A model generated the notes under the pieces. That model was not told the DNA's origin, searched no databases, and saw only the letters and a program-made list of their open reading frames with translations. Below are positions 1 to 51,500 of a stretch of 64,000 nt of DNA, piece by piece. The stretch lies in NCBI GenBank assembly GCA_965223905.1, contig CBDCXV010000002.1, positions 512,001-576,000 of the forward strand, given 5' to 3'. Numbering within the stretch: position 1 is the stretch's first letter; every line of letters starts with the position of its first letter. The stretch is from Candidatus Latescibacterota bacterium (GTDB lineage: Bacteria > Latescibacterota > UBA2968 > UBA8231). The position numbers and the translations under genes are program-made.

Positions 1-1
1 C

Positions 2-2769
<2,768 letters not shown>

Positions 2770-2773
<4 letters not shown>

Positions 2774-3498
2774 CCGGAAGCCTGGAAACTTCGGAGATCG
2801 CCTGGGGGGATTCGCGGCTGACCTATGCCATCCGGCGTAGCGCCCGGCGGAAGAAGACCGTGGCAGTGACGGTGGATCCGGCCGGCGGGGTGTTGCTGGT
2901 GGCCCCGGAGCAGATCAGCACCAGCCGACTGGATGCGATGGTCCGGCGGAAGGCACCGTGGATCGTGAAGCGGCTCCGGGGGGTGGAGTCGGGGGATCCT
3001 CCTCCGCCGCGGGAGTTCGTCAGCGGGGAGAGCGTGATGTACCTGGGACGGCACTACCGGCTGAAGGTTGATTCCGGGGGGCCGGGGGAGGCGAAGCTGC
3101 GCGGCGGCTGGCTGCACGTTCCCGCGCCAGCGGGGGAGGGGCAGCGGGATCAGGTGCGAGCGGCGTTGGTCTCGTGGCTGCGGGGGCACGCCGAGGTGCG
3201 GTTGCCGGAACGGGTGGAGATGTGGCGGCCGAAGGTGGGCGTGGAGATGCCCCAGGTGGTGATCTCAGACCAGCAGAAGAGGTGGGGTAGCTGCGACCGC
3301 AGCGGGACCATTCGGCTGAACTGGCGCATCATCCAGGCCCCGATGCGGTTGGTTGACTACGTTGTGGTTCACGAGTTGGTGCATCTGCGGCACCGGGGGC
3401 ACGGCCGGGACTACTGGCAGGCCCTTGGGCGGATTATGCCGGATTATGAGCGCCGGCGGGAGGATCTGCGGCACCGGGGGCTAGGATTCGCGTGGTAG
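2770..3498 (+). CDS. M48/YgjP-like (DUF45) zinc metallopeptidase, commonly found downstream of hsdR
   Basis: ATGA overlap with the hsdR stop; RWGSC motif and DYVVVHELVH (HExxH). Confidence 0.93.
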
Positions 3499-3579
3499 CT
3501 ACCGTGTAAGTCCTCCCAGATTTCCTTGGCAAACCCCACTTGCGCACCTCTCTCCCACCCTCCCTTGCGGATGAGGCCT

Positions 3580-4880
3580 CTAACCCATCAGTTCCTCCAT
3601 CATGCGGAATTCTTCCGCAAAACTCCCGCTTTCATCCGCATCGGCCTGCTCCCGAGCCAATTCCATGGCCCTTTCACGATCAACGGACTTCGGAATCAGC
3701 GCCAGAGCATACTTCCGAATATCCACCTCCTCCCGCTCCAGCAGCCGACGAAGGTCGATATAATCCAGCATTACTCCACAGTCCACGAGCCTTTCGATCG
3801 CGTCGCAGGTCTCCCCGACTCCACTATCCCCCTCAACTGCCTCAACAATCGCAGGGAGTACGGATTCCGTTCCCACGGTTCTCACCTTGCCATTCGCACA
3901 GTCGTCCAGATAACCTATTTCGCACTCAACTAGGAATCTGGGGAAGGTAGAGGTCAAGAACCCACTAGCCGTCCCAATAATCGTCTTTAGGCTAGCAACC
4001 GGCTCAATTGAGGCATCGTTCATCGTGACAAGATATGTTGGAATTCGCAACGCACACTGCCGACAGATATCTAGCAGATCCGGATCTCGGAGGGAGGTTC
4101 CGACAAAGATCGCCACATCCACATCCTTGGCAACATTTCGCAATTCTGTAGTCAAGTCAGGATACGGCGGCAAGGTAGTACGCTTTTCTCGCGTTGGAAG
4201 AATCATGGCGCTTCTCATTTTGGGGCCAACATACGATAGGTTATCAACAACCGAAAGGGCAAGATTCCCGTATAGAGGCATGGGGTGCCTTAGCTTGTAC
4301 ACGGCTCCATCGTCGCCCATATACCAGTCTGTTGAACCGTGCACTTTCAACAGTCTCAGCATGCCTTTCTGTGCGACATTCATTCCCCTCCACGTAGCAG
4401 TCTCCATTTCCCCAAACTCATAAAACCCGTCGTCAACCGGAGTCTCAAAACACCTACAGGCAATTTCGATGGCCCTATCGTAATTACTGGTCGCTATACA
4501 CAATTGGTGGTCCCCCATTTTCCTCACGACCACTCCCCAAAGACTTTTGGCGTGTACATCCCTAAGACGTTCACACACATGTTGGACAAACCACTCAGCC
4601 TCCCACCGCATCATCCGACTTGAGTTGAGGAGGTCTTCATCGACGGGGAAACCAAGTTTGCGATGGATGTCTTGCCCTTTCTCCAAACCTTCGACGGTCT
4701 CAATCAGCTCTTCCATGTCGTACTCCGATTGAGACAGCATTTGCTCCAACTTCTCAAGAACTCTTCCGGTCCATTCGAGGTTTGCCAAATGAGCATGGAA
4801 TTCCTCCACCATTCGACGCATTGCGGGAATACCTAGTTCTACCGAAGCACCCGCGCACCGGCAAAAAGCAGTATTTTCAA
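3580..4880 (-). pseudogene. Sir2 (SIR2_2-like) NADase-domain protein with a helical C-terminus, frameshifted near the start
   Basis: TTG at 4880 overlaps the upstream stop (TTGA). Removing a duplicated CG at ~4852 gives MKILLFAGAGASVELGIPAMRRM (GAGAS motif) in frame with ORF 3580..4821, which has TSNYD, LKVHGS and FVGTSLRD. Confidence 0.85.
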
Positions 4881-6580
4881 CTTATTGTCTCCATCAAATA
4901 CTGCCGCCTAATGGGTCCCAGTTTCCCGGTCTTCTTCGGTGACTTTGACAGTATATTTGCGATCTGTTGGGCATGTTCCTTACCATACTCTTTACAGCCA
5001 ATCCACAGTCCAATGTGGCCTTCGTTTCTACGGCAAATGGTCCGTACGATCTCCTTCCCTCCTTCATGGTCAATGTTAATCCAGATCTCGTCGCCAACCG
5101 GGAGGAGTGCTGCCGCACCCTGTCCTAGCCGGACAAGCTGCACGTTCGGCTTGTGGTCAAATACGGTTGCAACAGCTTCGCGCCCAACGACATCATTGGC
5201 GACGGCTTCAACCTGAACTAGTCTTGGAAGGAGCCCCTGGAAGTGATTCACGAGCAAGTCCCCCGTAGACGCACCTACGAAACTGGTTTCCCGGAGGAAT
5301 TGCGGCTCTCGATCAACACCTTGGACTACAAGGTGACCGCTATTCCTAAGCACCCGGACGGCTTGTTGCGTTACTTGGTTCGCTCTTGCTAGATTTAGGG
5401 GCGCAATATAGAGCTCATCCTTTTCGAGCGCCTCTATATCCCGAATAGATACTTCACTGCTTTGTTGACCTGGCTCCAGGAGACGAAATGCTTTTCTGTG
5501 GCGAAACTCCTCATCCCATAGTCTTGCTACCTTTTCGTATGGGCCAGTGCGGGGGACCGCAAGCCATATGGTTACCCAACGGCGGAGAGACCAACTTCGT
5601 GTTGTCTCATCGCTTAGCACTTAGCGTACGCATTCAATCGCACGCTCAAGTACAGCAGGGTGATAAGATCTCAACACAGGTTCGAGTTCAGCCTGTAAGC
5701 TGTCGCCTACGAATCCCTCTCGATTGAGTTTGGGCCGAAAGTGCTTGGGATCAACATGAATTGCACCTTCTATCGCCCAGAGTTGCTTTATGGCAACGGA
5801 GGCAACGAATACACCGCGATAGAGGATGTCGACATGAGCAGAGCCGTCGAAACTGTCCCAAGAATTGAATAATACGGGTGGACCAACATGAGCAGTTTGT
5901 ATCCAATCTGGCGTCAACACTGAAATAGGCCTTATTTCTCTGCTGATTCCGCCTTGGTCGATTTGTTTTCCTCCAGGGTCCTCCGTTGCCGTTAGTCCCT
6001 CCACGTCGCGAATCCAATGTGGGAATTTTTCCACTATCTGTTCAAAGGCCGACTCTTTGTCCACGAACAATATCAGATCCGTTCCTTGTTCTTTCCTACG
6101 AGGCTCAAGGGAAATCGCTTTGGTCGTTGCGTCCAACATGCCCCGGTTGAACTCCAAGCCCAAGGACTCGTTACCCGGCTTCAGAGTAAAGAGCTGGAAT
6201 TGTTCGCAAACTAGGAAGTAACTCAGGACCCCGATCCCAAACTCACCCACGGCGTTGTATTCGCCCTCCGCGGCTTTCGCTGCGACCCTAGACGCAGAGG
6301 CCCCAATTCGAGAGAAGAGTTCCACCATCTGATCTCTCCCCATGCCATCGCCATTGTCCGAGATAGTTACAGTGCGTGATTGGCGATCAAAGACTACTGA
6401 AATCTGGGGATTGACCGATGGATCTGTGGCTTGCCTACGACCCACCGCGTCAATGGAGTTCAGAATCGCCTCCCGTATTGATGCGTCCACGCTCGAATAG
6501 AAGGTTTCTCCAGTAAAGAGCTCCAGGATCGACTCCTGGTCGATAGTAAACCTTGGCGGCCAATCCGTGGTAGCATTCAT
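4877..6580 (-). pseudogene. Hsp90/GHKL-type ATPase (~567 aa) interrupted by one in-frame TAA
   Basis: GHKL boxes REAILNSIDA, DNGDGM, GEFGIG, QGT. ORFs 5621..6580 and 4877..5620 are contiguous in the same frame across TAA 5621-5623 (IECVR*VLSDE). Confidence 0.85.
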
Positions 6581-6721
6581 GTAATGACTCCTGAGGGCAT
6601 TGGCCCCTCTATCGAGTTCGTTAGGCGAAATGTCCGGTAGGCCGTTTTTTCCAGCCGTATGACGCTTGGGGCTTCAGACCGGCTCAGGACCATTCTCCCC
6701 CCTACCTCCACCTGCCAACCC

Positions 6722-7330
6722 TCACCCATACACCACCTCCACCAACGCCCGCATATACCCGATCGCATACGCCTTCCCATGCAACGCCCCATATACCGGC
6801 CCAAAGGACGGGGTGTGGACTATAAGGTACGGTCCGTTGAATCCGTTGTCCCCGGTAGACCTCCATTTCCGGCCGCAAGTCCACCTCGCCCTCGGCGATG
6901 AAGACCTCGGGGAACCGCCGCAACTGGCCCCCGACGTTGCGGAAGTGTACCCAGGCTATCTGTCTTTGAGGCCATCTTTGCGATGGCGTCGTAGACCTTC
7001 TCCGGTCCCAGCAGCTCGGTCATGCAGCCCTGGCAAAAGAGCATTCAGCTGGTGTCGATCGGGGTGACTTGAAGAAGATTCGGCGGAACTGCACCAGGGA
7101 GGAACAGATCTGCGCCACGCCGGGAAGGGGGCTGGGGCATCGGCGGGTCGTCCGGGTGCAGGGCAATTCGCACGCCCGCTTTCTCGGGCGCGGGGACCGC
7201 AGCTGCCAGGAAGCGCTCCATGCGCTTCCACATCCGGGCCTCGTCCACGGGGGAATCGTGGGGCTCGGGCCGGTTCCAAGGGGCGGTTTTGAAGGTGGCT
7301 GATCCCCTTGGTACATTCCGCGTGAATCCC
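6722..7330 (-). pseudogene. uxuA: Mannonate dehydratase remnant, copy 1
   Basis: Fragments in shifting frames: EKAGVRIALHPDDPP, LFCQGCMTE, FPEVFIAEGEVDL, NGFNGPYLIVHTP, GKAYAIGYMRALVEVVYG*. Confidence 0.8.
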
Positions 7331-7457
7331 CGACTCCAAAGGGACACCTTTCTTACGGGACTGCTCACCTTCGACAGAATGCGTATCTGAGCAGCGGGGC
7401 AGAGGATCCTTCCCTTTGCCCTCCCCACTCTCGTCGTCTTAGGCCAAGCGCGCGCCC

Positions 7458-8008: not shown

Positions 8009-8464
8009 TCAAGCCCCAGATGGATAGGGGAAGAATGAGTCCGATACCTTTACCTCGAATGAAAGATGGTTTTCTTGCGGAGAGTAGACCATCTTCCAAT
8101 TGCTCAGAATGTCACGGCCCAGGAGCGAAGGATACTGCATGTACTCTTCCAAGGGTTCCAGGAACAGAATGGGCAACTGGTATACGTAGATCTTGCTGCT
8201 GCCGCCAAAACACAGAATGGCCGGTTCTTCATATGCCCTCGCCTCTCCTCCAATTCCAGTGATCCCTTGTGGATTCTCCAGCGCACCATAATCGACTCCG
8301 ATCCTGTGCCCATCGTTCGGAGCTATCGTAGTGACAGAAGCCCCGGTATCGACCAGAAATGATATATCGCTTGGGGGTACGTTGGGAAATTGGCTCTCGA
8401 TCGAGATAACACTCTCAACATAGGGGCTTTGCGATGTGTCTCCATACCTACCGGAGATCGCCAT
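8009..8464 (-). CDS. Retropepsin-like (clan AA) aspartyl protease
   Basis: FLVDTGAS catalytic motif, GIGG flap, SLLGRD; lower GC than flanks. Confidence 0.85.
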   Translation of the reverse strand: MAISGRYGDTSQSPYVESVISIESQFPNVPPSDISFLVDTGASVTTIAPNDGHRIGVDYGALENPQGITGIGGEARAYEEPAILCFGGSSKIYVYQLPILFLEPLEEYMQYPSLLGRDILSNWKMVYSPQENHLSFEVKVSDSFFPYPSGA

Positions 8465-8474
8465 ATTGGCACCA

Positions 8475-8744
8475 TCACAGAATCATGGTACGAGGCTCGG
8501 ACTCGATATACCTGATGATGGCTTGCGCCCGAGAGTACCCTCCTGCATCCAGGGCCTGCAAGACGGACTCGAATGTCGGGCCATGTGCCCGCACCTTTCC
8601 CGAGTGAATCCCGATCCACTCATCCGGGTATTCCTCGATCATGCGAGGATTCTCCGATGACAGCAGGGTCACACTCTCGCGGTAAGCCTCCATTTGCTCG
8701 GCGATCTTGCCAGGATCGCCGATGATTTTCTCAACATCTGCCAT
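8475..8744 (-). CDS. Small DUF5678-like protein, co-oriented with the aspartyl protease
   Basis: YPDEWIGIHSGKVRAHG pattern; RBS AGGGAG; 10 bp gap to the protease. Confidence 0.7.
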   Translation of the reverse strand: MADVEKIIGDPGKIAEQMEAYRESVTLLSSENPRMIEEYPDEWIGIHSGKVRAHGPTFESVLQALDAGGYSRAQAIIRYIESEPRTMIL

Positions 8745-8942
8745 TTGGTGCTCTCCCTTGGTGCGGGGTCTATGGTTTCTGGTTTTCTTCTATTCCAAAC
8801 GAGCGCCGGCCCGAATGTACGGGTCATGGATGACCGGTCAATTCAGCGCCGGATCACAGCGCAACTCGTCGCTGTCATTGTCGTCCTTTTTGCACTCCCC
8901 ACTCTCGTCGCCTTAGGCCAAGCGGGCTCAGCAGCACCGCCC

Positions 8943-9752
8943 ATGGACTTCTACGAGGCCGCCGCGAACCTCTACGACCACACCCTCGGGCGGGCCGAGC
9001 TGGAGGGCGAGCGCGGCGACGTGGCCTTCTATGTACAGGAGGCCCGGCAGGCCGGGTCGCCGGTCCTGGAGCTGGCCTGCGGCACCGGGCGCGTCCTGAT
9101 CCCGATCGCCCATGCCGGGGTGCCGGTGGTGGGCTTGGACAGCTCGCCGGCGATGCTCGCCACGGCCCGGAAGAAGGTCGCCCGGCTCCGCGAAGCGACG
9201 CGGCAGTGCATCGAGCTGGTCGAGGGGGACATGCGCTCCTTCTCCCTCGACCGGCGCTTCGACCTCGTCATCATCCCCTTCCGGTCGTTCCTGCACCTGA
9301 TGACCCCGGCCGACCAGCGCCGGGCCCTGGGCCGCATCCGCGAGCACCTGACCGACGACGGCCGCCTGGTGTTCAACATCTTCGACCCTCGGCTGGACAT
9401 GATCGCTTCCCATCTCGGACACCGCGGCCACCCCCTGGAGAAAGAGAGCGAGTTCACCCATCCGGAAACGGGGCGGCAGGTGGTCGAATGGGTGAGGCGC
9501 CGCTACGACGCGGCGAACCAGACGATCGACGAGGAGCGGATCCTCGAGGAGCTGGACGGCGGACAGGTCGTTTCCAGGACCCCTGCGACGCTCGCCCTGC
9601 GCTGGGTCTACCGCTACGAGATGGAGCACCTCCTGGAGCTTAGCGGCTTCGCCGTGGAGGCGCTCTACGGCGGCTTCGACCGCGGACCCTTCCACCACGG
9701 CGGCGAGCAGGTCTGGGTAGCGCGGAGGGCGTCAAGCCCACCCTGCCGGTGA
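8943..9752 (+). CDS. Class I SAM-dependent methyltransferase (possible longer start at 8826)
   Basis: VLELACGTGR motif I, GLDSS, EGDMR, FDLVIIPF. Confidence 0.9.
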   Translation: MDFYEAAANLYDHTLGRAELEGERGDVAFYVQEARQAGSPVLELACGTGRVLIPIAHAGVPVVGLDSSPAMLATARKKVARLREATRQCIELVEGDMRSFSLDRRFDLVIIPFRSFLHLMTPADQRRALGRIREHLTDDGRLVFNIFDPRLDMIASHLGHRGHPLEKESEFTHPETGRQVVEWVRRRYDAANQTIDEERILEELDGGQVVSRTPATLALRWVYRYEMEHLLELSGFAVEALYGGFDRGPFHHGGEQVWVARRASSPPCR

Positions 9753-10225: not shown

Positions 10226-10437
10226 GGGACAGTGATCATTTCTCGGATGGCGTCAGCCGGCACACCGCGCAACCCCTCCTCCCGACGGTCCTCAAGGATG
10301 AGCGCTACGGCCTCAGCCAGATTCTCGCGTGCTTCCTCCTTGGTTTTGCCCTGACCGTTTGCCCCGGGGATCTCGGGGCAATAGGCGATATGCCATTCCC
10401 CATCCTGCTCGATAATCGCCGTAAACTCGTTTTTCAT
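10222..10437 (-). CDS. hicB: HicB-family antitoxin (short form), copy 1
   Basis: YCPEIPGANGQGKTKEEARENLAEA. Confidence 0.9.
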   Translation of the reverse strand: MKNEFTAIIEQDGEWHIAYCPEIPGANGQGKTKEEARENLAEAVALILEDRREEGLRGVPADAIREMITVP

Positions 10438-10503
10438 TGTGTGTTTCCACCCTCTTTGTCTTGCGTATTGCCTTCGGATGACAGTAGGCTCACCCGCTAA
10501 ATC

Positions 10504-10985
10504 TTAGGAATAATCCTGAGCCCACTCGTCCTTAATACTTAGCGTGCTGCACATTGCAATCCGCATTGCGTTGTTCATCACACGACAACGTTCAAGATTT
10601 CTCTCGATTTCAACCAACTCGGTGAGCAATCCCATACGCCCTTCGGTCGACTCAAGCCCGGAATTACGCTCTAGAAAGAAGCGATGGACCAGATAGTTCC
10701 GCTGATCTAGGGCGGTGGAAAACCCTTCCTCAACAGAATCTTCCTTGATCGTTACACGTTGTCGCACTTTGTTGAGAAGTTGCCCCATGGTCATCTTTTT
10801 GCCAAGGTCATCGATACTTAATGAATCTGAGGCGATCTGTTGTACATTTTCAAGAATCTCGTGAGGCTTTGTTCAAATAGTTGAGAATGCTGGACAGCAG
10901 AGCCAAAGCACGCGAAGACTGCATTGAGTTGCCCTTCTTCAGTCTCCAGTATCTTGAGTGACTCGGTGGTGTATCCGCGTTGCAT
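10504..10985 (-). pseudogene. Putative HEPN-like protein (~160 aa) split by a 1-nt deletion
   Basis: ORFs 10818..11006 and 10504..10794 join via a shift at ~10838 (MYN-x-IASDSLSIDDLGKKMTMGQLL). Carries RNYLVH (Rx4H); lower GC. Confidence 0.65.
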
Positions 10986-11131
10986 ATTATCGATTCCCTT
11001 TTTCATCTTTTAGCATCCTCCAACTCTATTTTGCCACTCTTGGATCCTCGGTGCGTGATCAGGAGCAAGATTGGTCGGTGGGGTTCCAAGGGCATGGCAT
11101 GGACGTAGGCGCCTGACAGCTGCCCAAGGGT

Positions 11132-11768
11132 TCAGGTTTCTGGGGAATTTGGGCAGGAGAGTCCGCAATGTGACCCGAGAATCGAACTGACGACATTGTG
11201 CAGATCTTGAAAGTGGGTGAAATACTCAAAGGTGGCGTTTTGAAGGACGTGGTTGGCGAAATCAGCCTTCCGGTTTTTTGGGAACTCACGTCCCAGCAAC
11301 CTGCCGTCGTTGTCCACCTTGCTGATCGAGATTGGCTCCAAGATCCTCTCGTCATAGGTATTCTCGATGCCGTTGCGGGCGATCACGTTGTCTTGTCGCC
11401 TCCTGAACGCGAACGGTGTGACCTTGGCAGCACCGGGCAGTTCCTTGCGCAAGTTATCCGCCTGGTCCGCGGCGTCACCATCCCACACGATTACAAAGTG
11501 CGTGTTCGTGTTCATCCTTCCGAGCAGCCGGCCGTATGCGAGTAACTGGCTGGCGCTGCTGTGTTGAGAAAGATCTTCGAAAACATGGACATTCTGTGGA
11601 AAACTCAACTGCACCCATTTCTTGAGGTGCCGGGCGTTATGTCCCTCAGTCAGTATAGTCACCTTCGCTTCGTCGTACGCTGCGATCCTTAGTCCCAGGT
11701 CCACCGTTGCGAGGCCTTCTGAAAGTTCGTTGATGGCTTCCGACTTGGTGGTGCGAGCGACGTTGAGG
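11132..11768 (-). pseudogene. TOPRIM-domain C-terminal fragment (OLD-like nuclease), 5' part lost
   Basis: ILTEG...IVWDGD TOPRIM acidic motifs. No start of its own; abuts the second M48 copy. Confidence 0.65.
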
Positions 11769-12313: not shown

Positions 12314-12578
12314 CGTCGTCGAGGGTGAGGGCCCGGTAGTTGGCGGCTAGGTCTGAGCCGCCATAACCATGCGAGGTAAGGTACGAGCTCAAGCCTCGCG
12401 GAAGCCCGAGGGTGCGGTCCGTGCCTCCCCTCTCTCTGTAGCAGGTGGGGGCGGTCGATCTGCGGCAGAGAGTCACAGTGGGTATCCTAGGCTCCGGTGA
12501 AGCCGGGGCGCCCGGTGGTCCTTGCTGGTTAGGGCTGGATGTCGGGAGCTACAGTACGGGGCTATTGGCCTTAGAGGA

Positions 12579-12983
12579 TTACGGCCGTGGCATCCATGAT
12601 GCCGCATTAGCAAGCGCCTGCAAATGCTCATTCACTTTATCGGGATCATTCATATCCGCGCAGGGCAACCGAACATCAGCATGGTAGGGATTGCAGCATG
12701 TGGGGGATGCAACTACGCATCGCCCGTCTTGAGATGCGATTTCCGCTTTCACCACAGCCCATCCCCGGAAGTTCCTGCCTCGCATCCTGTCCCTCTTGTC
12801 AGCGATTGAGGCAACCTCGTCAATCCACGAGTCGCACAAGCGGTCGAACGATACGCCGCCTTCGTCTAACCTAAAATCCCTATGGCGAAAAATCCCCCTC
12901 CTTGCCTTTCTCGCGCTCGAGTCGGAAGCGATACTCCGGCCCAATTTGCAATCCCCGCTGATGTCCTTTGTCACCATGTCCAT
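12579..12983 (-). CDS. Hypothetical protein, third gene of a coupled cassette; possible ADP-ribosyltransferase-like fold
   Basis: 134 aa, overlaps the upstream stop. Pattern R...GVSFDR...NPYHADV. The fold is inference. Confidence 0.6.
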   Translation of the reverse strand: MDMVTKDISGDCKLGRSIASDSSARKARRGIFRHRDFRLDEGGVSFDRLCDSWIDEVASIADKRDRMRGRNFRGWAVVKAEIASQDGRCVVASPTCCNPYHADVRLPCADMNDPDKVNEHLQALANAASWMPRP

Positions 12984-13804
12984 CCATCGGTCATTTCATC
13001 CAGTCTCAACAAAGCCATGCGAAGAAAACCATCGGGCAGTTGGCCCGACTCCTCCGGCGTATAGGATCTGCTACGTTCGGGAATCCCTGGGACATCAACA
13101 AGGCAAAGTGCCCCTCCGTTTGACCTGCATAACAGAATCACTGAACTGCCTCTTCTGTTCGGAAGGCTAATGGCAATCTCTCGATCATGAGTAGTGTATA
13201 TGTCATATTGCCTGGGGAGGATGTCGAACATCTCTCTGAGCAGGCGATCGGCGTTTGTCTTTGCCAAGTCCGAAGGAAGCTCGAAACCTTCTTCTAATGC
13301 GTCCTTGTCGACTTCGTTCAATTCATCCAAGAGTTCCTGGAATCGGCTATCTGTCTCGGAGGGCCTGGAAGACTCCACAAAAGCCCAAATAGGGACAAGC
13401 GGCTTGTTCAAATCGCCATAGACTGTATGTCTGCCTCTACGAGAATTGCAACCTGCGAATGTGCTGTAAGCAGCGCGCCCTACTTCGGGCGTAGAGGAAA
13501 CGTCAAGATAGCCAGAGGAATCTTTCCAAAAAGCAAGCGAGAACTGCTCTCTGCCCTGATCCCAGGCGCTGGTGTGGGGATTATTTCTGAAAAACTGCTC
13601 TTGCCCCTGTCTCCATTTCTCCAATATGGAAAGGTTCTCCAGGAGGACAGCATCGGTCGTTCCAGTTTCCTGATTCTCGTCCCCCTGTTCCCAAGTCGTC
13701 CAGCCAGCAGTGTCAGGATCAGCCATAGGGTTCCGTGGTGCACGGAACAATGCTCGATCCCGTGTTGGTGTCCGGGGCTTAGAAGCGGCTTGAGTCATTT
13801 CCAT
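12971..13804 (-). CDS. Hypothetical protein, middle gene of the cassette
   Basis: 277 aa lower-GC ORF overlapping both neighbours. Confidence 0.7.
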   Translation of the reverse strand: MEMTQAASKPRTPTRDRALFRAPRNPMADPDTAGWTTWEQGDENQETGTTDAVLLENLSILEKWRQGQEQFFRNNPHTSAWDQGREQFSLAFWKDSSGYLDVSSTPEVGRAAYSTFAGCNSRRGRHTVYGDLNKPLVPIWAFVESSRPSETDSRFQELLDELNEVDKDALEEGFELPSDLAKTNADRLLREMFDILPRQYDIYTTHDREIAISLPNRRGSSVILLCRSNGGALCLVDVPGIPERSRSYTPEESGQLPDGFLRMALLRLDEMTDGWTW

Positions 13805-14451
13805 TGGTCAAAACAATCGATGAAGTCAAAAGTATTCTTCCACACTTCAGCAAATCGACTATTCAAATCCAAGTGGTCGCGGATCTCTTCTGTGTCGAGA
13901 TGGACATTCGTGCTAATGAAGATTTTTGGAGTTTCAAGGTCTTGGAGGCGAGGCTCGATGGTAACGATGAACTTTCTATTTCTATCGTCCCCTGTATAGT
14001 ACATCTTGCATCCACCACCAGAAAGCTCCCAGTCCTTGAAAGACTCTCTCTTAGGAAAGATCCGCGAGGCGATATAGAGGCCGGCCGGCGAGCGTACCTC
14101 ATTAACTTGGGCAGGGGTATACACAACCTCCATGTTGAATCCAATCGCCGTAAGTGGCTGACTTTCGAGGTCGTCGGTATAGGACATTGCCTTTGTGGCG
14201 ACATCTACTAATTGGGCAAGGTCTTCGTCCGAAGATAGATAGTCTCTTTGAACAATCGACCGCTCGCTGGATAAATCCAGCGAGATCCTATGCTTGTTGA
14301 TGATATGATTTCTTGAGCCGCCGGTCACAATGGTGGTCAATTCATCATCAATGGAAAACTGAAACTGCCTTTGTTGCTCCGGTGTATTGAGTAGGTCTAT
14401 CCCCAAAAGCACCATGTTTACCCTTATCACTTCAAATGGAGAACTGTCCAT
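13795..14451 (-). CDS. Hypothetical protein, TIGR04255-like
   Basis: RBS GAAGGA before ATG 14451. VNMVLLG and LTAIGFNME strand pattern is reminiscent of TIGR04255-like proteins. Confidence 0.6.
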   Translation of the reverse strand: MDSSPFEVIRVNMVLLGIDLLNTPEQQRQFQFSIDDELTTIVTGGSRNHIINKHRISLDLSSERSIVQRDYLSSDEDLAQLVDVATKAMSYTDDLESQPLTAIGFNMEVVYTPAQVNEVRSPAGLYIASRIFPKRESFKDWELSGGGCKMYYTGDDRNRKFIVTIEPRLQDLETPKIFISTNVHLDTEEIRDHLDLNSRFAEVWKNTFDFIDCFDQWK

Positions 14452-14857
14452 GATTCCTTCTCCCCTCAATGCTCTGCGTGCGTGGTGGGCCCCTGGCTTG
14501 GGCTCCTCATGGCAGAATCCGGCGCCGGCCCCACTTGCACCAGTGTTCATCCGTAGCCCTGCTATGCCCGCGTGGAACCTATGAGTGCCGATGACGGCCT
14601 GTCAACTCTCAGCCTTGCTCGTTTCGTGCAAGGCTAGTCCTCTCGGGCTCCGTCCTCCCCTCGCCAGGGCCCGCGCTGCGGCCATGCCACAAAGACTTCC
14701 AGAGGTATTTGCCTAAGCAACTCTGATACACATGGGACCACCATGCAAGACTTGGGACATGCCCTTCGCCCAACGAATCCTGGTCCCGCACTCCCCGAAC
14801 CGTCACCGCTGATGAGCTGTACCCCTTCCTCGCCAGTCCTTTGCGTCCCTCTCACCC

Positions 14858-15150
14858 TCACCCGAAAACCACCACCACCACCAGCTCCCGGATATATCCG
14901 ATCGCAAAAGCCTTCCAGGCAGGGGGTCGAACCCCGCCCAAAGGAAGGTGTTTGGTCCATTATGTACGGCCCGTTGAACCCGTTGGCCCGGAGACCTCAA
15001 TCGCCCACTGCATGTCCACCTCGCCCTCGTCGAAGAAGATTTGGGGGAACTGCTCCAGGGTGGAGCAGATCTGGGCAACTCCGGCCAGGGGCTCGGGGAA
15101 TCGGCGTGTCGTCGGGGTGCAGAGCTATCCGCACTCCCGCTTTCTGGCCG
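14858..15150 (-). pseudogene. uxuA: Mannonate dehydratase remnant, copy 2
   Basis: QKAGVRIALHPDDTP, FDEGEVDM, NGFNGPYIMD, KAFAIGYIRELV; homologous to 6722-7330 with an internal deletion. Confidence 0.78.
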
Positions 15151-15196
15151 CGACGGGTGGTGATGAGGTCCGACGACGGTCTATGGTAGAACAATC

Positions 15197-15391
15197 TCAA
15201 ATGGCATCTGCCGGCACACCGCGCAACCCGTCCTCCCGGCGGTCCTCAAGGATGAGCGCTACGGCCTCAGCCAGATTCTCGCGTGCTTCCTCCTTGGTTT
15301 TGCCCTGACCGTTTGCCCCGGGGATCTCGGGGCAGTAGGCGATATGCCATTCCCCGTCCTGCTCGATAATCGCCGTAAACTCGTTTTTCAT
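15197..15391 (-). CDS. hicB: HicB-family antitoxin, copy 2, 3'-clipped with no hicA
   Basis: Near-identical to 10222..10437 including ~45 bp of upstream DNA; stops 7 codons early. Confidence 0.8.
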   Translation of the reverse strand: MKNEFTAIIEQDGEWHIAYCPEIPGANGQGKTKEEARENLAEAVALILEDRREDGLRGVPADAI

Positions 15392-15409
15392 TGTGTGTTT
15401 CCACCCTCT

Positions 15410-15943
15410 TTAGTTTTGCCTATTGCCCTCGGACGGGGTAGGGGTTGGGCTGTTCTGGCGCAATGCGACTTTCACAGCCCCCCAACTGCGTGCCTGCACT
15501 CCCGTCGATATCCCTTCCACCTGTACATGGAAGTACGCCGGCTCGGATTCCACCGGCCCGTCATCGGTATTCTGCACCGTCGTGACCGCCCACAGAGTGT
15601 GCGTGTCGCTGTCCAGGGTAGCGACCACGACCCTGACGACAGGCTCCATAGGGCCGATGATGCCCCACGACACGAGGGCAGTCTTGGGAGAATCCAGCTC
15701 TACCAGGTTGCCCTGTTCATCGAGGCCCACAGTGACCGCTATCTCCCGGTAAATCCGGTATCCGTCCGCTCCCTCCACCGCATTCCAGGTCACGAGGATG
15801 AAGCCGCCCTGGTCGCCCTGGTTCTCCGGCGGGTTGTATGGCACTGCCACCACCGAGTCGGGCGGCGCAGGCAGGGCCAGACCCGCGTTCACGGACAGCA
15901 GCAGGGCAAGTATCGCCAGCGTCACTTTCTTCGCATGTCTCAT
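15410..15943 (-). CDS. Secreted protein with an FN3-like region and C-terminal 'SWGAVK' motif
   Basis: Signal peptide MRHAKKVTLAILALLLSVNAGLA; TWNAVEGADGYRIYR; TGVQARSWGAVK. Confidence 0.75.
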   Translation of the reverse strand: MRHAKKVTLAILALLLSVNAGLALPAPPDSVVAVPYNPPENQGDQGGFILVTWNAVEGADGYRIYREIAVTVGLDEQGNLVELDSPKTALVSWGIIGPMEPVVRVVVATLDSDTHTLWAVTTVQNTDDGPVESEPAYFHVQVEGISTGVQARSWGAVKVALRQNSPTPTPSEGNRQN

Positions 15944-42870: not shown

Positions 42871-42888
42871 GGCGATTCCTCCAGTGCC

Positions 42889-42904
42889 TGGCACGGTGCG
42901 TGCA
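42889..42904 (+). promoter_or_regulatory. Sigma-54 (-24/-12) promoter
   Basis: TGGCACGGTGCGTGCA, with correct GG-N10-GC spacing. Confidence 0.75.
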
Positions 42905-42964
42905 AGAGTATGGGCTGCGAGAACGATTTCCGTTCTGGCCGAACATGCGGAGAGGGAGGGCGAC

Positions 42965-45900
42965 ATGAGAAGGATGTCAGTCGACCTGCAGAGACGGGGG
43001 GAGGAAGATGCCGGAGGAGGGACTTCACAAGCGCGGGCGGCAAGCCGTTTCGGTCCCAGGGTCAGGCGATGGCTTCGACAAGTGCAACGGCGAGGCCACG
43101 CGTCGGCCCGCCCGCGAGGCGGGGCGCGCGGATCCGGCACAGTGCTTCTGGCGGCAGCCACCGCCCTTGTCGTCGCCGCGGCCGCCTCCGCTCAAGAGTA
43201 TGATCCGCCGGTCACCACGCTCGTGACGAACATGGTGCAACCTTCAGGATCGGACCTGGTCGTATGTCTGTCCGAGGGTCAGGACGGACTGTTTCAGGGG
43301 TTCAGAACCGGGCCGAACCAGGGTGGATACGAGCTGACGAGTATTCTGCTCTATGTGCGAGCGACGCATGAAAGTCGGTACATGACGATAAACGCCGGCC
43401 TGTACCGCGGCCGCGGCAACCAGTACACCAGGGTCGCCGACCTCACCAGGGCAGGTTCCTTGAACGACTTTGCCCACAATGAATGGCAGGCCCCCGCCAA
43501 CACCTACCTGGAGCCGAATACGGATTACCGTTTCGTCCTTGACTGTGTCGCCGGCTGCGCCAATGACAACAAGGCCCAATTCGGCAGGACCTACAGCATG
43601 GAAGAGGATTCGGGGGCGGAAGAGGGCTGGACTCTCCATGATCATCTCGGCTTTCGGAGAGCTGGCGAGACCCACTGGCTTTGCGATCTCAACAAGGTTC
43701 TCAGGATACGTATCAAGGGGCGTCCCAGCCCTCACCGCGCCTACAGGACGGAGATCGTGTCGACGCCGGAAAACGGGGGCACCTACCTGTACGGGGAGAA
43801 CATCGATGTCGCCCTGACGTTCAACACGGACGTGTACGTGCCGGAGGAGGGCTCCGAGATCGGCATTCGGGTCGGCGAGGCTGCCGACGGCCCCACCTAT
43901 CGCGCCGCGGAATACCTGTCCGGCTCCCGCACGAATCGTCTGGTGTACCGCTACCGGGTGCAGATGGGCGATACTGACGCCAACGGCATCAGCGTCGACG
44001 CGGGAGGACCGGACACCGGATACAGCAGGTGGGTGCCAACGATCGTCGCCAGTCTGGGTCTGTTGCCGGTCGACCGCTATTTCCCCGGACGGGCAGACGA
44101 CGGCAACCACAAGGTGGACGGCTCGCTTCAGGTCACCGATGTGGAGATCACGTCGAGACCCGGGCACGGGGATGGCTACCGGTTCGGCGAGGAGATCGAC
44201 GTCACCCTGACGTTTTCCGCCGAGGCGTTTGTCGGGCAGGACGCCTCGGTCATTGCCATTCGAGTCGGGGACGGTGCCGGCGAAGAAAACTACCGGGCTG
44301 CACGGTACGAATCCGGCTCCGGCACGAAGCGGCTCCTGTACCGTTACCGGGTGCAGTTTGCCGATTTCGATGCGGACGGCATCAGCGTCGATGTGGGCGG
44401 GGCCCACTCGGGCTTCGATGGGCCGCTGCCCACGGCCAGCCCCGGTCCGGGCTCAGTCCCGGCATCCCGGCACTACCCCGGCATGGCTGACGACGCCGGT
44501 CACAAGGTCGATCGATCGGTGACCGCTTCGTTCGTCGTGGAAGCCTTGACCATCTCCGAGGACGGAACCTCGGCGACGGTGACCGTGGAGCTGGACCCCG
44601 ACCCCGATCGTTCGGTGACCATCCCGATCGTCGTTGCCCTTGGCGACGGGGCGTCCGTCGACGACTACACCCTGTCTGCAACCGGCCTCGCCTTCGCGCG
44701 CGGGGAGACCTCGAAGAGCTTGACAGTGACCGCGACCGACGACAGTGAGGACGACGACGGGGAGAGCCTGGAACTCTCCTTCTGGACCTTGCCGTCCGGG
44801 GTGCGCGCCGGAAGTCGGGCATCCGCCACGGTGACCATCGCCGACGACGACGGGGCAACGACGGGACAGACGATTTCGATCAGCGCCGGCAGGGACGCCT
44901 ATATCGCAGGGTTGGACGACGTGGTCTTCGACCTGACGCTGGCCGAGGCGTCGGATCGGGCAATTGCGGTCGACGTCAGGCTGACGCAGGAGCAGCTGTT
45001 CCTGAATACCGGCGACCTGACGCAGCGCGTCGATTTTCCCGCTGACGCGACCGCCGCGGAGCTGCGCATCTCCCCCTCCCTGCAAAACGAGCGCGTGATC
45101 CAAAGCGGCACGCTTATGGCTACGGTTATCGAGGGGGCCGGCTACCACATCGGGACGCCGGCGGCGGCGAGCGTGCGCATGGCGGTGGGCAACCCCGCGT
45201 TGATCGCGCGGCTGGGGAAGTCCTCGTACAGCTTCGAGGAAGGGGCGACCGGCGCGGCAGCGGGCATCGAGGTCATCCTGGAGACGCAGCCGGGATTTCC
45301 GGCACCGAACCGGAGCCACGAAGTGACCCTGTCGACGGAGAGCGGGACGGCGGCTGCCGATGAGGATTTCGTCCCCGTTACGGAAACGATGACGTTCACT
45401 CCCGAGGAATTCACGGCCGCCGACGGCCGATGGGTTGCCCGAAAGAATATCGAGCTGCAGCTGGTGGACGACTCGGCGGACGAGCTCGAAGGGTTCTTCA
45501 TGGCAACGCTGGCCCGGGACGTTTCGCTCGGCGACCTGATTCAGGTGCGCAATCCCAACCGCACGCAGTGCGACGGCCCGTGCCGGTCCAGGATCGTCAT
45601 TGCCGACAACGACGAAGTGGGTGTCGCCTTCCTCGACGGCGACGGCAACCCGCTCACCGATTTCCGGCTGACGGTCCGCGAAGGGGAGCAGGTCACCTAC
45701 CAGCTCGAGCTCGACAGGCCGCCGGCGCAATGGGTGATTCTCGCCCGGGAACCGGGTGAGGGGGACCCCGACCTGGTTTCGCTCGGCGAGCAGTCCTGGA
45801 TGTTCACGGCGGGAGAAGGCGGGGCCCCTGAGGATGTCGACCATCTCCATGAGACGGTCCCGGGGATGGAGCACACGACCCCCCTGGAAATTCACCATTC

Positions 45901-48205: not shown

Positions 48206-48530
48206 GAACCGTCGGCCTGTCAGCTCGACACGGGCTGCCCGAGGAGCTCCATCCCCGATATCTCTGATTTCTCAGTATCAGTAGCTACCCCTTGTCTGCT
48301 TGGCACTGGTCCTGGAGTACAAATCCGGGGCTTGGGGGACTTCCATCGCGATGTCCAGGACGTCGGCCACAGGTGCCCCGAGTGCCGCAGCAGGAAGAAC
48401 GACAACCGGCAGCCGGGCCCCACGGACCCCGAACAGGAACAGGAAACTCCGGAAACACTGTTTTCACAGGGGGAACCCTGGGAGCGCCAGCCTCACATGG
48501 AAGGCAACTTCCAGGCAGGGTGCCTGAACC

Positions 48531-51500
48531 TCAGCGCAGCAGTGTGAGCTTGCGGGTTTTCGCGCCGCCGGCCGTAACCAGGCGGTACACATAAACCCCA
48601 CTGGAAAGCGGGCGGCCTCGATCGTTCCGGGCGTCCCAGCGCAGGCGGTGAGGGCCAGCCTTCGCGGCACCTTCGTGCAACACCGCGACCCTTTGACCGG
48701 TCAGCGCAAACACCTCCAGGCGCGCCAACCCCGGCTGCAGCTGGTACCAGATTATCACCGTCTCGCTGTTGAAGGGGTTGGGGGCGTTCTGCTGCAGTTG
48801 CGGGCCGTCGGGAAGCCCGATCATTTCGTGGGCCAGGGCCAGCAGCTTCCCTCTCGCCTCTTCGCCGAAGTGGTCGGCGAGGAGGAAGAAGTCTCCGAAG
48901 CCGACCAGGCCATCGCCGTCGAGGTCGAAGTAGGGTTCACTGCTGCCGAAGTAGTCGGCGAAACGGAAAAAGTCATTGAGGTCGATCTGGCCGTCGGCGT
49001 TGAAGTCGGGGGAGGCCTCCCCGACGGCGGTAAAGACCACCGGCTCCAGGCCCTCTACGGTCACCTCCACGCGGATGGTCCCCCACACCTCTGCCGGCGT
49101 CAGCAGGCTGGCAGCGCGGCCCTGGGCATCGGTGAGGGCTAATTGAACCGACAGCAAGCCGTCGCCGGCGGTGACCGCAAAGGTGACCCGCACCCCTTCG
49201 AGCCCGTTTCCGTTCTGATCCAGCACTTGAACGATCAGCGGCTCACTCAATGCCGTCCACACCGGTCCCTGCTGCTCATCGCCGGACAGCTTGGTCAGTG
49301 TCCGGGGGGCAAGCAGCCCCACAGCGGTGAACATCACCGGCTCCAGGCCCTCCACGGTCACCTCCACTCTGACGGTACCCCCCACCCCCTCCAGGGTCAG
49401 CGTGGCGGAAGCGCGGCCCCCGGCGTCGGTAGTGGTGGTCTCCACCGACAGGGTGCCGTCGCCGGCGGTGACCGCGAAAGTGACCTCGGCCCCTTCGAGG
49501 CCATTGCCTTCCTCATCCAACACTTCAACGACCAGGGGCTCGGCCAACGCCGAGCCGACCGGCCCCCTCTGCTCATCGCCGGAAAGCTTGGTCAGCCCTT
49601 GCGGGGATAGCAGCCCCACAGCGGTGAACATCACCGGCTCCAAGCCCTCCACGGTCACCTCCACGCGGATGGTTCCCCCCACTTGCGGGGTCAGGATGCT
49701 GGCAGCGCGGCCCTGGGCGTCGGTGGTGACGGTTACTCGCGATAGGTTTCCATCCCCGCCAATGATCGCGAAAGTGACCTGCACCCCCGCGAGGACATTA
49801 CCATTCTGATCCTGCACTTGAACGACCAAGGGCTCGCTCAACGATGTCCAGACGGAGCCCTGCTGCCCATCGCCGGAAAGCTTGGTCAGCGTCCGGGGGA
49901 CCGGCACCAGCAGCCCGACAACCGTGAAAGTCACGGGTTCCAAGCCCTCCACGGTCGCCTCCACGCTGACGGTCCCCCCCTCGTCCCCCAGCGTCAGTGT
50001 GGTGGTGGCGCGGCCTCGGGTGTCCGTAGTGGCCGTTGCTGACGACACGGTCCCGTCCCCCTCCGTAACCGCGAATTCAACGGCCACGCCGGACAAGCCC
50101 GCCCCGTTCTGGTCCCGCACCTCGACGACAAGGGGGTCCTCGACCCGAGTGCCCGTCGGAGCCTCCTGGCCATCGCCCGAGATTTTGGCCAGGCCCTGAA
50201 GAGCGCGAGAGAAAACGACCTCGACACCCCCCGCTTCCAACTGTGGAATCTGCACGTTGGCTGCCGACGAATTCAGTGGATTGCCCTCGAGATTCAGGCG
50301 GGTCAGTTGCGTTGCCCATTCGAGACCCGTCAGAGAGCGGATCCCCCGGCTCCTCACGTCAAGGGAGCTCAGGCGGTCCATATCCTCCCGGGTGAGAGGT
50401 CCGTAGCCGGATTTGCCCAGGGCTTCCCGTACGGCCGCTTGCAGGTTGAAGTCGGCGATATGTACTACGGGGGTGACATAAGGGTCCAGGTTCCACAAGA
50501 CGATGGTGTAGTCCCCCAGTCTTTCGTAACCGCCGCCCAATGACGTGGCGAAAGTTGTGCCGTCGGGGGAAAATGCCGCACAGGCACCAAGCAGTCGATC
50601 GCCGCTGTTGCCCTGAAATCTCGCGAGTCTTCTGTAATCTCTCGCACCCGGATCCACTTCCCAGATGCTGATATCCCCATCCTGTACGGCGGTGACGATC
50701 TTCCCGCCATCGAGGGTAAAGGACACATGACGGAGAAGGTTCAACGCCCTCATTTGAAATTGATCCTTGAAGGCCCTCTTCTCCACGTCCCAGAAGGCGA
50801 CTTTGTTGTTGAAGGCACTTGTAACGAGTGTCTTCCCGTCCGGTGAGAAGGCCACGGAAGTGACCGAGTTCTCATAGGGGAAATTGGCAGTCTCGGTCTT
50901 TGTCGCTACGTCCCACAGCCTGATCGTGTTATCGAAAGCACCCGAAGCCAGGGTCTTGCCATCCGGTGAAAATGCCACGCTCTGGACACCCCCTGTATGG
51001 CCTGAAAGGGGGGGGAGCTGGGTTCTCCTCTCCATGTCCCAGAGCCTGATGATGTTCGGGCCGGTCCAATCATCCGTTATCCCCGAGGCGAGGATTCCTC
51101 CATCGGGCGAGAAGGCCAGGGACATGATCCGGGCGCGATAGGCAGTCAGTCTGAAGGTGGTTATCTCGGTTTTCGTCGGCACGTCCCACAGCTTGATGCT
51201 GCCATGCCATGTCCCCGTGGCGAGGGTTTCTCCATCGGGCGAAAAAGCCAGAGAAAAGACCTGCTGAACACGCCCCCGATTCGGGTCATATCCCTCGAGG
51301 GTGGCGATGTGTTCCCCGGTCTCTGCGTTCCACAGTTCAACGGTCAGGTTCTCTGTCCCTGCGGCGAGAGTTTTTCCATCGGGCGAAAAGGCCACACCGT
51401 TGGCTCCCTCTCCCCTGACCCCTTTCTGTCTGTCCAGGGGGATGACGAGCTTGTGGGTCGAATCATGCAGCAGGGTAAGACCCATCCTGCGGATATTGCC

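Follow-up and report, generated by a model that had tools for sequence, protein, structure and literature searches.

Does a pair of adjacent bacterial genes, one for an ATPase of the GHKL/Hsp90 type and one for a Sir2 protein, form an immune system that so far carries no name? The question is raised by a 64,000-nucleotide (nt) stretch of a Candidatus Latescibacterota genome (assembly GCA_965223905.1, contig CBDCXV010000002.1, positions 512,001 to 576,000), here called the window, in which the two genes occupy the minus strand at 3580..6580; this module was analysed, and its neighbours were screened within the window. An initial annotation, made from the sequence alone, had seen in the pair a candidate anti-phage system. 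We find that the ATPase and the Sir2 protein constitute a fixed, obligately adjacent module, and we consider it reasonably probable that the module is an abortive-infection system that depletes nicotinamide adenine dinucleotide (NAD+), with an ATP-driven, Hsp90-like clamp controlling a Sir2 effector, and that the copy in the window has been inactivated. What is new here is the full Hsp90 architecture predicted for the ATPase, the strict and widespread pairing, and the place of the module beside effector-fused Hsp90-like proteins; ATPase-controlled Sir2 defence, and conflict systems built on Hsp90 modules, are kinds already known.

The pair and its two proteins

Evidence that the two genes belong together comes from other genomes. 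One scan of species-representative genomes gave 195 pattern matches, from which a neighbourhood sample of 13 loci was drawn (three from Pseudomonadota, three from Acidobacteriota, two each from Nitrospirota and Planctomycetota, and one each from Bdellovibrionota (Micavibrio), Actinomycetota (Gaiellales) and Chloroflexota), 12 of them with flanks. A Sir2 homologue lies directly downstream of the ATPase gene, on the same strand, in 12 of the 13 loci and in at least seven phyla; the thirteenth locus is a contig of 2080 nt, which breaks off about 110 nt past the ATPase, and the expectation that the two genes would be conserved as neighbours is therefore borne out in 12 of 12 testable loci. Stop and start codons overlap by four nucleotides, in the form xTGA, at eight of the nine junctions examined in these other genomes, the spacing at locus L002 being 1 nt. 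For 11 pairs, the pairwise distances of the ATPases and of the Sir2 proteins correlate with a Mantel r of 0.94, a value reached in none of 5000 permutations, and the maximum-likelihood trees of the two proteins contain the same three major clades; since shared ancestry alone gives such a correlation, this shows inheritance and transfer as a unit and not physical interaction. Indirectly, 56 of the 119 listed ATPase clusters have a longest source contig equal in size to that of a listed Sir2 cluster. The pair also occurs, intact, in a cultured strain, Lentisalinibacter orientalis YNA5901, at about 2,050,812-2,053,780 of NZ_JAPDRJ010000001.1 (locus L007). Homologue sets were taken at E<=1e-3 from 8000 scored candidates per protein, giving 360 relatives of the ATPase (566 residues, identity up to 86%) and 444 of the Sir2 protein (429-436 residues, identity up to 75%), and with hundreds of full-length relatives of constant size for each protein, the gene pair does not consist of chance open reading frames (ORFs).

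The first gene (4877..6580, minus strand) had been annotated as encoding a GHKL/Hsp90-type ATPase of about 567 residues, and both its 567 codons and the match of its N-terminal half to the Pfam model HATPase_c_3 (40.3 bits, E 3.9e-10, cut-off 25) agree with this. A Bergerat ATP-binding domain, called by Pfam, a PDB profile and hhalign, occupies about residues 1-190 (6011..6580, minus strand) and contains the motifs REAILNSIDA (6446-6475), DNGDGM (6341-6358) and GEFGIG (6230-6247); the Pfam score over the cut-off, together with N-box, DxGxG and GxxGxG motifs, places the protein among the GHKL/Bergerat ATPases. In an alignment of 108 homologues E37, D44, D75, G77, G79, G112 and G115-G117 are invariant and N41 is kept in at least 90%, and the window copy has all of them. 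The profile of these homologues, searched against the PDB, matches the N-domains of Hsp90, HtpG and TRAP1 over residues 10-177, from E 3.9e-19, and hhalign pairs the N-domain with that of E. coli HtpG at a probability of 98.5. The best NCBIfam matches are 'HSP90 family protein' and HtpG, in the N-domain only, with 73.9 bits against a cut-off of 455 (NF010683) and 66.3 against 371 (NF003555) for the window protein (P0001), and an intact homologue (P0003) likewise scores under these cut-offs, with 71.7 and 59.0, respectively. Since the scores lie below the HtpG/HSP90 equivalog cut-offs, we file the protein as an Hsp90-like paralogue and not as HtpG.

The C-terminal half of the ATPase, which is without any Pfam domain, had been described as unrecognised, a description that can now be revised, as Foldseek and an aligned loop arginine suggest that it resembles the middle and C-terminal parts of Hsp90. 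AlphaFold2 (AF2) models were built on intact homologues, 86% identical to the window copy for the ATPase and 75% for the Sir2 protein. For the ATPase model (predicted local distance difference test, pLDDT, 86.5; predicted template modelling score, pTM, 0.78), all 35 matches listed by Foldseek against the PDB belong to the Hsp90 family (Hsp90, TRAP1 or HtpG) and extend over 650-690 columns, the best being 8ffv_B (E 2.6e-18; template modelling score TMq 0.50). TMq reaches 0.50-0.51 with Hsp90 in its closed state but no more than 0.29 with open HtpG, and since the N-domain makes up one third of the protein and cannot alone give such a score, the arrangement of N and middle domains appears to be Hsp90-like. 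The region resembling the Hsp90 middle domain, assigned by Foldseek and by a loop motif, comprises about residues 191-500 (5081..6010, minus strand). It includes the putative catalytic-loop motif KLNREG (5714-5731), whose R287 aligns with the arginine of the LNVSRE loop of HtpG and is the same in all 12 sequences aligned by MAFFT, among them E. coli HtpG and six sister proteins; we take the equivalent arginine of HtpG to be the middle-domain residue that contacts ATP. About residues 501-567 (4880..5080, minus strand) form a helical C-terminal region (AF2 helices 505-565), which appears to occupy the place of the Hsp90 dimerisation domain. In the ESM Atlas, the top clusters for the C-terminal half are unnamed, and an HSP90 cluster, at only 0.83, fell under the lead threshold and was not used. 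On its predicted structure, then, the ATPase is a compact Hsp90 paralogue with N-M-C architecture and no HtpG orthologue.

The second gene (3580..4880, minus strand) belongs to the SIR2_2 family: this Pfam model scores 32.7 bits on the window protein against a cut-off of 24.5 and is found in 98 of 98 aligned members, with the classical Sir2 model present weakly in 32 of the 98. The catalytic core (4324..4491, minus strand) holds the motifs TSNYD (4477-4491) and VHGSTDW (4324-4344). In the numbering of the intact homologue P0124, N132 and D134 of TNYD and H180 of HGS are invariant in the 98 homologues, including the window copy, and the GAGAS loop is invariant or nearly so; as in other defence sirtuins, N132 and H180 are presumably the catalytic residues. 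The AF2 model of the Sir2 homologue has a pLDDT of 92.1, and among solved structures the protein comes closest to the SIR2 subunit of SIR2-HerA, both by profile (8w9l, E 2.9e-8) and by fold (8sub_A, E 5.7e-10), with Sirt5 and other classical sirtuins also among the structural matches. A viral fold library searched with this model returned only ordinary viral sirtuins, in four matches at E<=1e-3.

The C-terminal tail of the Sir2 protein (3583..3969, minus strand) had been called helical and HEAT-like. The former is supported by the AF2 model, in which the tail is all-helical (helices 305-434), whereas the likeness to HEAT repeats finds little backing, HEAT_2 being found in only 4 of the 98 members with a best E of 0.0057; no second Pfam domain was found in the window copy or in the 98 homologues. 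This tail is the most variable part of either protein, with a mean column entropy of 2.17 bits as compared with 0.9-1.9 elsewhere. At one alphaproteobacterial locus, from a metagenome-assembled genome (MAG; L004:8701-10560), the Sir2 protein measures 620 residues, being longer at its C-terminus by an extension of about 190 residues, and falls in a cluster (P0216) of six members.

Co-folding of a cognate-like pair, the ATPase P0004 with residues 1-430 of Sir2 P0124, gave an interaction score (ipSAE) of 0.44, the median of 0.35, 0.51 and 0.44, as against 0.00 for the best of three controls; contacts agree between the runs to at least 96%, and the pLDDT of the partners is at least 79. Of 157 solved complexes 116 reach the mark used for such co-folds, as do 2 of 215 mismatches; since our own alignments were used, these counts are rough. 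Since the pairing is already likely from the operon structure, the co-fold modestly raises the odds of binding, and the models weakly support the formation of an ATPase-Sir2 complex.

The family to which the ATPase belongs has clear limits. Its profile, searched against 1.84 billion representatives (50% identity), finds 67 proteins at E<=1e-30, of which nine are full-length and the rest fragments, and beyond this set there is a sharp drop to proteins that match the N-domain only. These relatives are HD-CE+GHKL fusions of about 880-1030 residues and one Mrr_cat+GHKL fusion (the fusion proteins being P0319, P0326, P0334, P0342 and P0356), and stand-alone GHKL proteins of about 600 residues (P0331, P0341, P0350, P0362 and P0374), the last of which are a sister family whose homology with the module ATPase runs through the whole protein (hhalign probability 100, E 2.4e-40, 535 columns). 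The HD-CE and Mrr fusions thus join the same type of ATPase to different effectors, a pattern typical of conflict systems.

Horizontal spread and the copy in the window

The module has been acquired and spread horizontally, as judged from the gene trees and base composition. Phyla are intermixed in both trees, where the starred branches force three changes for Pseudomonadota and two for Planctomycetota, and the alphaproteobacterial and Gaiellales copies are sisters with support of 99/99; the trees are to be read with the caveat that MAG bins may contain foreign contigs. The guanine-plus-cytosine content (GC) of the module lies under that of its flanks in 11 of the 12 loci with flanks. A screen of 146 ORFs around these 12 loci, reaching about 7 kb, further revealed mobile or defence hallmarks near the module in at least seven of them. 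These comprise IS3 transposases on both sides together with the HipA-like HipA_2 (L001), a type IV secretion system coupling protein and ABC-3C (L003), two transposases and Fic (L004), a recombinase, BrnT, a transposase, Mrr, VRR-NUC and a relaxase (L005), a Mu-type capsid gene (L008), a ResIII-DUF3427 helicase (L009), and NOV_C, DUF1156, HEPN-DUF499 and GmrSD (L012). At L003:1968-5475 the module stands directly behind the three-gene ABC-3C system in a stretch resembling an integrative and conjugative element (ICE), and at L012, over 10-6965 and 13435-15663, it lies within an island of NOV_C, DUF1156, HEPN_Swt1-DUF499 and GmrSD.

In the window itself both genes are broken, and the proposal that each carries a single lesion proved correct. 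The ATPase ORFs 6580..5621 (319 residues) and 5620..4877 (247 residues) are, by translation, one frame split by a single in-frame TAA at codon 320 (5621..5623, minus strand), where close homologues have Glu and the alignment fits a GAA-to-TAA change; reading through with X at the break gives 567 residues. The ATPase stop TGA (4879-4877) overlaps the Sir2 start TTG (4880-4878) in a TTGA (4877..4880, minus strand) that indicates translational coupling, as had been noted. From this TTG the Sir2 frame reads (M)KILLFAGARVLR and then meets a stop, and a second frame is open from 4851 for 423 codons to a stop at 3582-3580, the two adding up, allowing for the frameshift, to 9+423 or 432 residues, which is the length that had been estimated. 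Since intact homologues read LLF.GAGAS.ELG uninterrupted and without an added residue, the lesion consists of two extra bases at 4853-4852, that is, a +2 frameshift (4852..4853, minus strand) within the codons of the GAGAS NAD-binding loop, equivalent to one missing base. Each gene is here either a pseudogene or the subject of a sequencing error. The residues that are invariant across the alignments are, since these include the window copies, by construction all kept in both proteins, from which it follows that the lesions are either of recent date or possibly errors; the sequence database carries the window proteins in truncated forms of 319 (P0062) and 410 residues (P0123). A second broken copy occurs in a Dehalococcoidia MAG (L013:5443-7156), in which the ATPase is frameshifted, with two overlapping frames at about 5834-6117.

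The surroundings of the module in the window were also as annotated: its GC is the lower one (0.49-0.53, against 0.66-0.71 at positions 1-3250; about 0.51, as compared with 0.67-0.70 for the flanks), and it adjoins a type I restriction gene, hsdR (134-2773, plus strand, open at the 5' end of the window), and an overlapping YgjP-like M48 metallopeptidase gene (2770-3498, plus strand), whose domains Pfam confirms at 134-3498. GC at third codon positions (GC3) is 0.51-0.56 in the module and 0.85-0.94 in hsdR and M48. An hsdR-type domain occurs within 7 kb in none of the 12 other loci with flanks, and the restriction-modification (R-M) gene next to it in the window is therefore a chance neighbour, brought there by the clustering of defence genes in islands. 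Immediately upstream lies a decayed uxuA for D-mannonate dehydratase (6750-7428, minus strand; UxuA at 3.9e-9 on a 127-residue ORF), its frame broken repeatedly, which points to real pseudogenisation in this neighbourhood.

Further away, a low-GC ORF of 151 residues (8012-8464, minus strand) matches retropepsin-like aspartyl proteases (PF13975, 2.4e-7) and, weakly, a PADLOC candidate (PDC-M08B, 2.8e-5), and beside it a methyltransferase gene (8694-9749, plus strand) resembles mad2 of the MADS system (2.3e-18); the ORFs in 8012-9749 may be further content of a defence island. Low-GC patches at 10250-11500 and 12500-14550 (0.47-0.55), with ORFs that have no Pfam or PADLOC match, such as the overlapping 12974-13804 and 13798-14550 (minus strand), possibly represent additional foreign genes. 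No tRNA integration site was found in the window, and an imperfect 26-nt direct repeat (73%) that brackets the module at 3491-3516 and 6566-6591 was dismissed as chance, its second copy being the first codons of the ATPase. A search of 3300-7200 for promoters and terminators was uninformative, with 0 promoter-like and 4 terminator-like signals as against 4.2 expected. Two very long ORFs at 42884-52553, one for a Calx-beta protein of 1773 residues (plus strand) and one for a protein of 1340 residues with WD40 and Big_1 repeats (minus strand), are unrelated to the module.

Relation to described systems

The initial annotation could name no characterised system with this pairing, and our searches agree with it. 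Defence annotation with PADLOC-DB 2.0.0 (2023) gave only weak matches to type II restriction endonucleases for the ATPase and only generic SIR2 models for the Sir2 protein, leaving the pair unnamed, and NCBIfam has no named family for it. A full-text literature search, with the full text of Nicastro et al. 2023 outside its coverage, returned no described pair of SIR2 and a GHKL/Hsp90-type ATPase, and the SIR2 defence papers listed in one of its parts are all without the word 'Hsp90'.

Among systems with a Sir2 effector, SIR2-HerA (Nezha) is, like the module, a two-gene operon of an ATPase and a SIR2_2-type NADase, and it accounts for the best matches of the module's Sir2 protein (8w9l, 8j4u and 8sub). 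Its ATPase, however, is a P-loop hexamer of the HerA/FtsK type, whereas that of the module is predicted to be a dimeric clamp of the GHKL/Hsp90 type, the two folds being unrelated, and the Sir2 proteins share an identity of only 14-17%, that of the module having a helical tail of about 130 residues. Membership in SIR2-HerA was rejected, as the partner is a GHKL protein in the window and at all 12 loci and no HerA domain occurs in the flanks. DSR2 likewise joins a SIR2 NADase domain to a C-terminal helical-repeat region, which is reported to sense a phage structural protein. It is, however, a single protein of about 1000 residues without an ATPase partner, and a Sir2 protein of 429-436 residues with a short tail and an obligatory upstream ATPase does not belong to DSR1 or DSR2. 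Thoeris was set aside as well, for the Sir2 protein is without a SLOG or Macro domain, the flanks of the 12 loci hold no TIR gene, and PADLOC gives only generic SIR2 models; so was SPARSA, with no Argonaute domain in the flanks and with Aga_SIR2 models that match weakly (best 1.9e-13), below generic SIR2. In SIR2-HerA, DSR2, SPARSA and Avs5, Sir2 is reported to need partner-driven assembly for its activation, and these systems are the analogy for the mechanism proposed below.

On the side of the ATPase, the chaperones Hsp90 and HtpG share with the module the N-domain motifs, the loop arginine and the three-part architecture. In comparison with E. coli HtpG, the module ATPase is about 60 residues shorter and has no significant sequence similarity past the N-domain, and unlike HtpG it shows a patchy distribution and horizontal spread and is tied to a Sir2 gene. 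Nicastro, Burroughs, Iyer and Aravind, in Nucleic Acids Research (NAR) in 2023, reportedly predicted HSP90- and HSP70-related modules to be switches in immune systems. Insofar as a citing passage permits the comparison, such Hsp90-module systems combine, as the module does, an Hsp90-related ATPase with a nucleotide-directed effector, and HD-CE+GHKL is the nearest outgroup; their effector is fused N-terminally, whereas the module has SIR2, directed at NAD+, as a separate coupled gene. The module ATPase is, moreover, a discrete family of 566 residues that matches the HD-CE and Mrr fusions over the N-domain only. Hsp90-like putative antiphage proteins with N-terminal HD or calcineurin-like domains are described, with reference to Nicastro et al. 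2023, in a preprint (bioRxiv 10.64898/2026.09.30.754977). The same preprint presents Tiamat as a validated anti-phage protein which has, like the module ATPase, an N-terminal Hsp90-like ATPase domain and which uses swappable effectors (bioRxiv 10.64898/2026.09.30.754977). As described there, Tiamat is a stand-alone gene with DUF3684 and a PD-(D/E)xK nuclease, whereas the module ATPase appears to have an Hsp90-type middle and C-terminal region, and PADLOC-DB 2.0.0 returned no Tiamat model for it.

An older parallel is paraMORC4, fused or adjacent to TIR, in an account with 0 occurrences of SIR2 (Iyer, Abhiman and Aravind 2008, PMC2292703). Both have a GHKL ATPase and, in the same protein or next to it, a Rossmann-like domain of a type now known as NADase. 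paraMORC4, however, is one of the MORC/MutL-like ATPases and has an S5 domain and a TIR effector, whereas the module has Hsp90 matches and a SIR2 effector: the 35 fold matches listed are all Hsp90 and none is MutL or MORC, and the partner is always Sir2.

Reading the module and its alternatives

The phylum-mixing trees, the low GC at 11 of 12 loci, the mobile and defence neighbours and the swappable effectors of related ATPases lead to the reading of the module as a conflict system, and the first three of these lend support to the proposal of a candidate anti-phage pair. As to how it might work, we infer the NADase activity, the trigger, the direction of control and the protection against phage, and the earlier division of roles into a sensor or chaperone and an effector may be understood in the same way. 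The dimeric ATPase clamp and the Sir2 protein would form a complex in which the clamp holds Sir2 inactive; a cue of infection, most likely a phage protein, would be captured as a 'client' by the ATPase, by the variable Sir2 tail, or by both; ATP-dependent closure of the clamp would then bring the Sir2 subunits into an active assembly, and NAD+ would be consumed, such that the infected cell would no longer support phage growth.

Several observations weigh against this reading. As written, the window copy appears to be disabled by a nonsense codon in the first gene and a frameshift in the second and could not work. Five of the 12 loci (L002, L007, L010, L011 and L013) show no clear mobile or defence hallmark within 7 kb. 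Searches by tblastn with the ATPase, the Sir2 protein and two sister ATPases (P0341 and P0362) gave no match in 72,556 plasmid records, and with the ATPase only four weak N-domain matches in 50,697 phage records, which leaves spread on known mobile elements undocumented. The co-fold score falls in a weak band, at an ipSAE<=0.60, in which 18 of the 157 solved complexes and both passing mismatches reach the mark. No ATPase-Sir2 fusion was seen among proteins of 992-2830 residues, which is weak evidence. The C-terminal half of the ATPase, compared with E. coli HtpG by hhalign, is collinear with it at an E of 0.41, which is not significant, and the middle-domain call therefore derives from the predicted fold and one conserved motif. 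Finally, enzymes of the SIR2 fold may also deacylate or ADP-ribosylate, and the data here do not separate these activities.

To our knowledge, every characterised defence Sir2 depletes NAD+, and this counts against the alternative, in our view quite unlikely, that the Sir2 protein uses NAD+ to modify, by ADP-ribosyl transfer or deacylation, a specific phage or host macromolecule or its Hsp90-like partner, which would still make the module a conflict system. The best sequence and fold matches are NADase subunits of SIR2-HerA and not deacylases, and 98 of 98 members match SIR2_2, a family of defence NADases; a modifier would nevertheless be in keeping with the several NAD+-dependent reactions that the SIR2 fold is established to support, with the weak matches to the classical Sir2 model and with the presence of Sirt5 among the structural neighbours, and early comparative genomics weighed roles in ADP-ribosylation or as a nuclease for defence Sir2 proteins (PMC3506569). 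The tight, translationally coupled two-gene operon could instead be that of an addiction module, in which the ATPase, as a dedicated chaperone or antitoxin, folds or neutralises a toxic Sir2 protein and the pair stabilises mobile elements. Transposases, toxin-antitoxin genes (BrnT, HipA-like, Fic) and ICE genes near several loci, and the ease with which the module is lost or broken (the window, L013), are what such a module would predict; an ATPase of 566 residues whose predicted ATP-hydrolysis machinery is fully conserved, the loop arginine included, is however far larger and more elaborate than typical antitoxins, neither Pfam nor NCBIfam detects a DNA-binding or autoregulation domain in it, and the fusion of related ATPases to effectors in one polypeptide fits a switch over an antidote, making this account, to our mind, distinctly improbable. 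That the two proteins are a housekeeping pair of a regulatory sirtuin and a specialised chaperone, outside any conflict, would suit the loci L010 and L013, which lie among ordinary metabolic or signalling genes. It is hard to reconcile with the patchy distribution over phyla, the phylum-mixing trees and the atypical GC at 11 of 12 loci, with the small size of the family (at 50% identity, only nine of its full-length members stand among 1.84 billion proteins) and with broken copies in two genomes, and we give it very little credence.

Two further alternatives concern the window. The lesions might be sequencing or assembly errors and the organism might have a working copy, for all alignment-invariant residues are retained and the terminal branch of the ATPase is short (0.07, against 0.08 for the nearest relative), so that decay is very recent or not real. 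Against this, a TAA by base substitution and a 2-nt change in a non-homopolymer context are neither of them typical long-read indel errors, the adjoining decayed uxuA shows real gene decay, and the database forms of the window proteins are truncated; on balance we think errors unlikely. The other alternative, that the pair is an accessory of the type I R-M locus formed by hsdR and M48, starts from their adjacency in the window and from earlier remarks on a link between Sir2 genes and type I R-M loci (PMC3506569). With the module convergent to hsdR and M48 and different in GC, and with an hsdR-type domain at 0 of 12 other loci, this reading is largely refuted and its chance of being right negligible.

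We thus return to an NAD+-depleting system under the control of an Hsp90-like ATPase. For the window alone the finding is modest, as the copy there is a recently disabled passenger of a small defence island. For the family the implications are wider. Bacterial immunity makes repeated use of Sir2 NADases as effectors, each known system pairing them with a sensor of its own, be it HerA, Argonaute, STAND, a signal made by TIR or a HEAT-like domain within the protein itself; with an Hsp90-type protein as the obligatory partner, a chaperone-like clamp driven by ATP would join this list. The module would also offer a simple two-gene model of how GHKL proteins control immune effectors, a question shared with MORC, Tiamat and the Hsp90-module systems, and a compact, well-conserved family with a cultured host and predictable catalytic residues makes the idea directly testable. 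One could go further and speculate, if rather tentatively, that a true Hsp90-type machine serves as the infection sensor of an unnamed, phylum-spanning immune system, with phage proteins as its clients and with clamp closure activating the Sir2 NADase. If so, the same kind of system would also take in the sister family of about 600 residues and the HD-CE and Mrr fusions, with effectors other than Sir2, and infection would be sensed in a new way, distinct from those of STAND, HerA and cyclic-nucleotide signalling, for which the part that Hsp90 plays in the function of immune receptors would be the eukaryotic counterpart.

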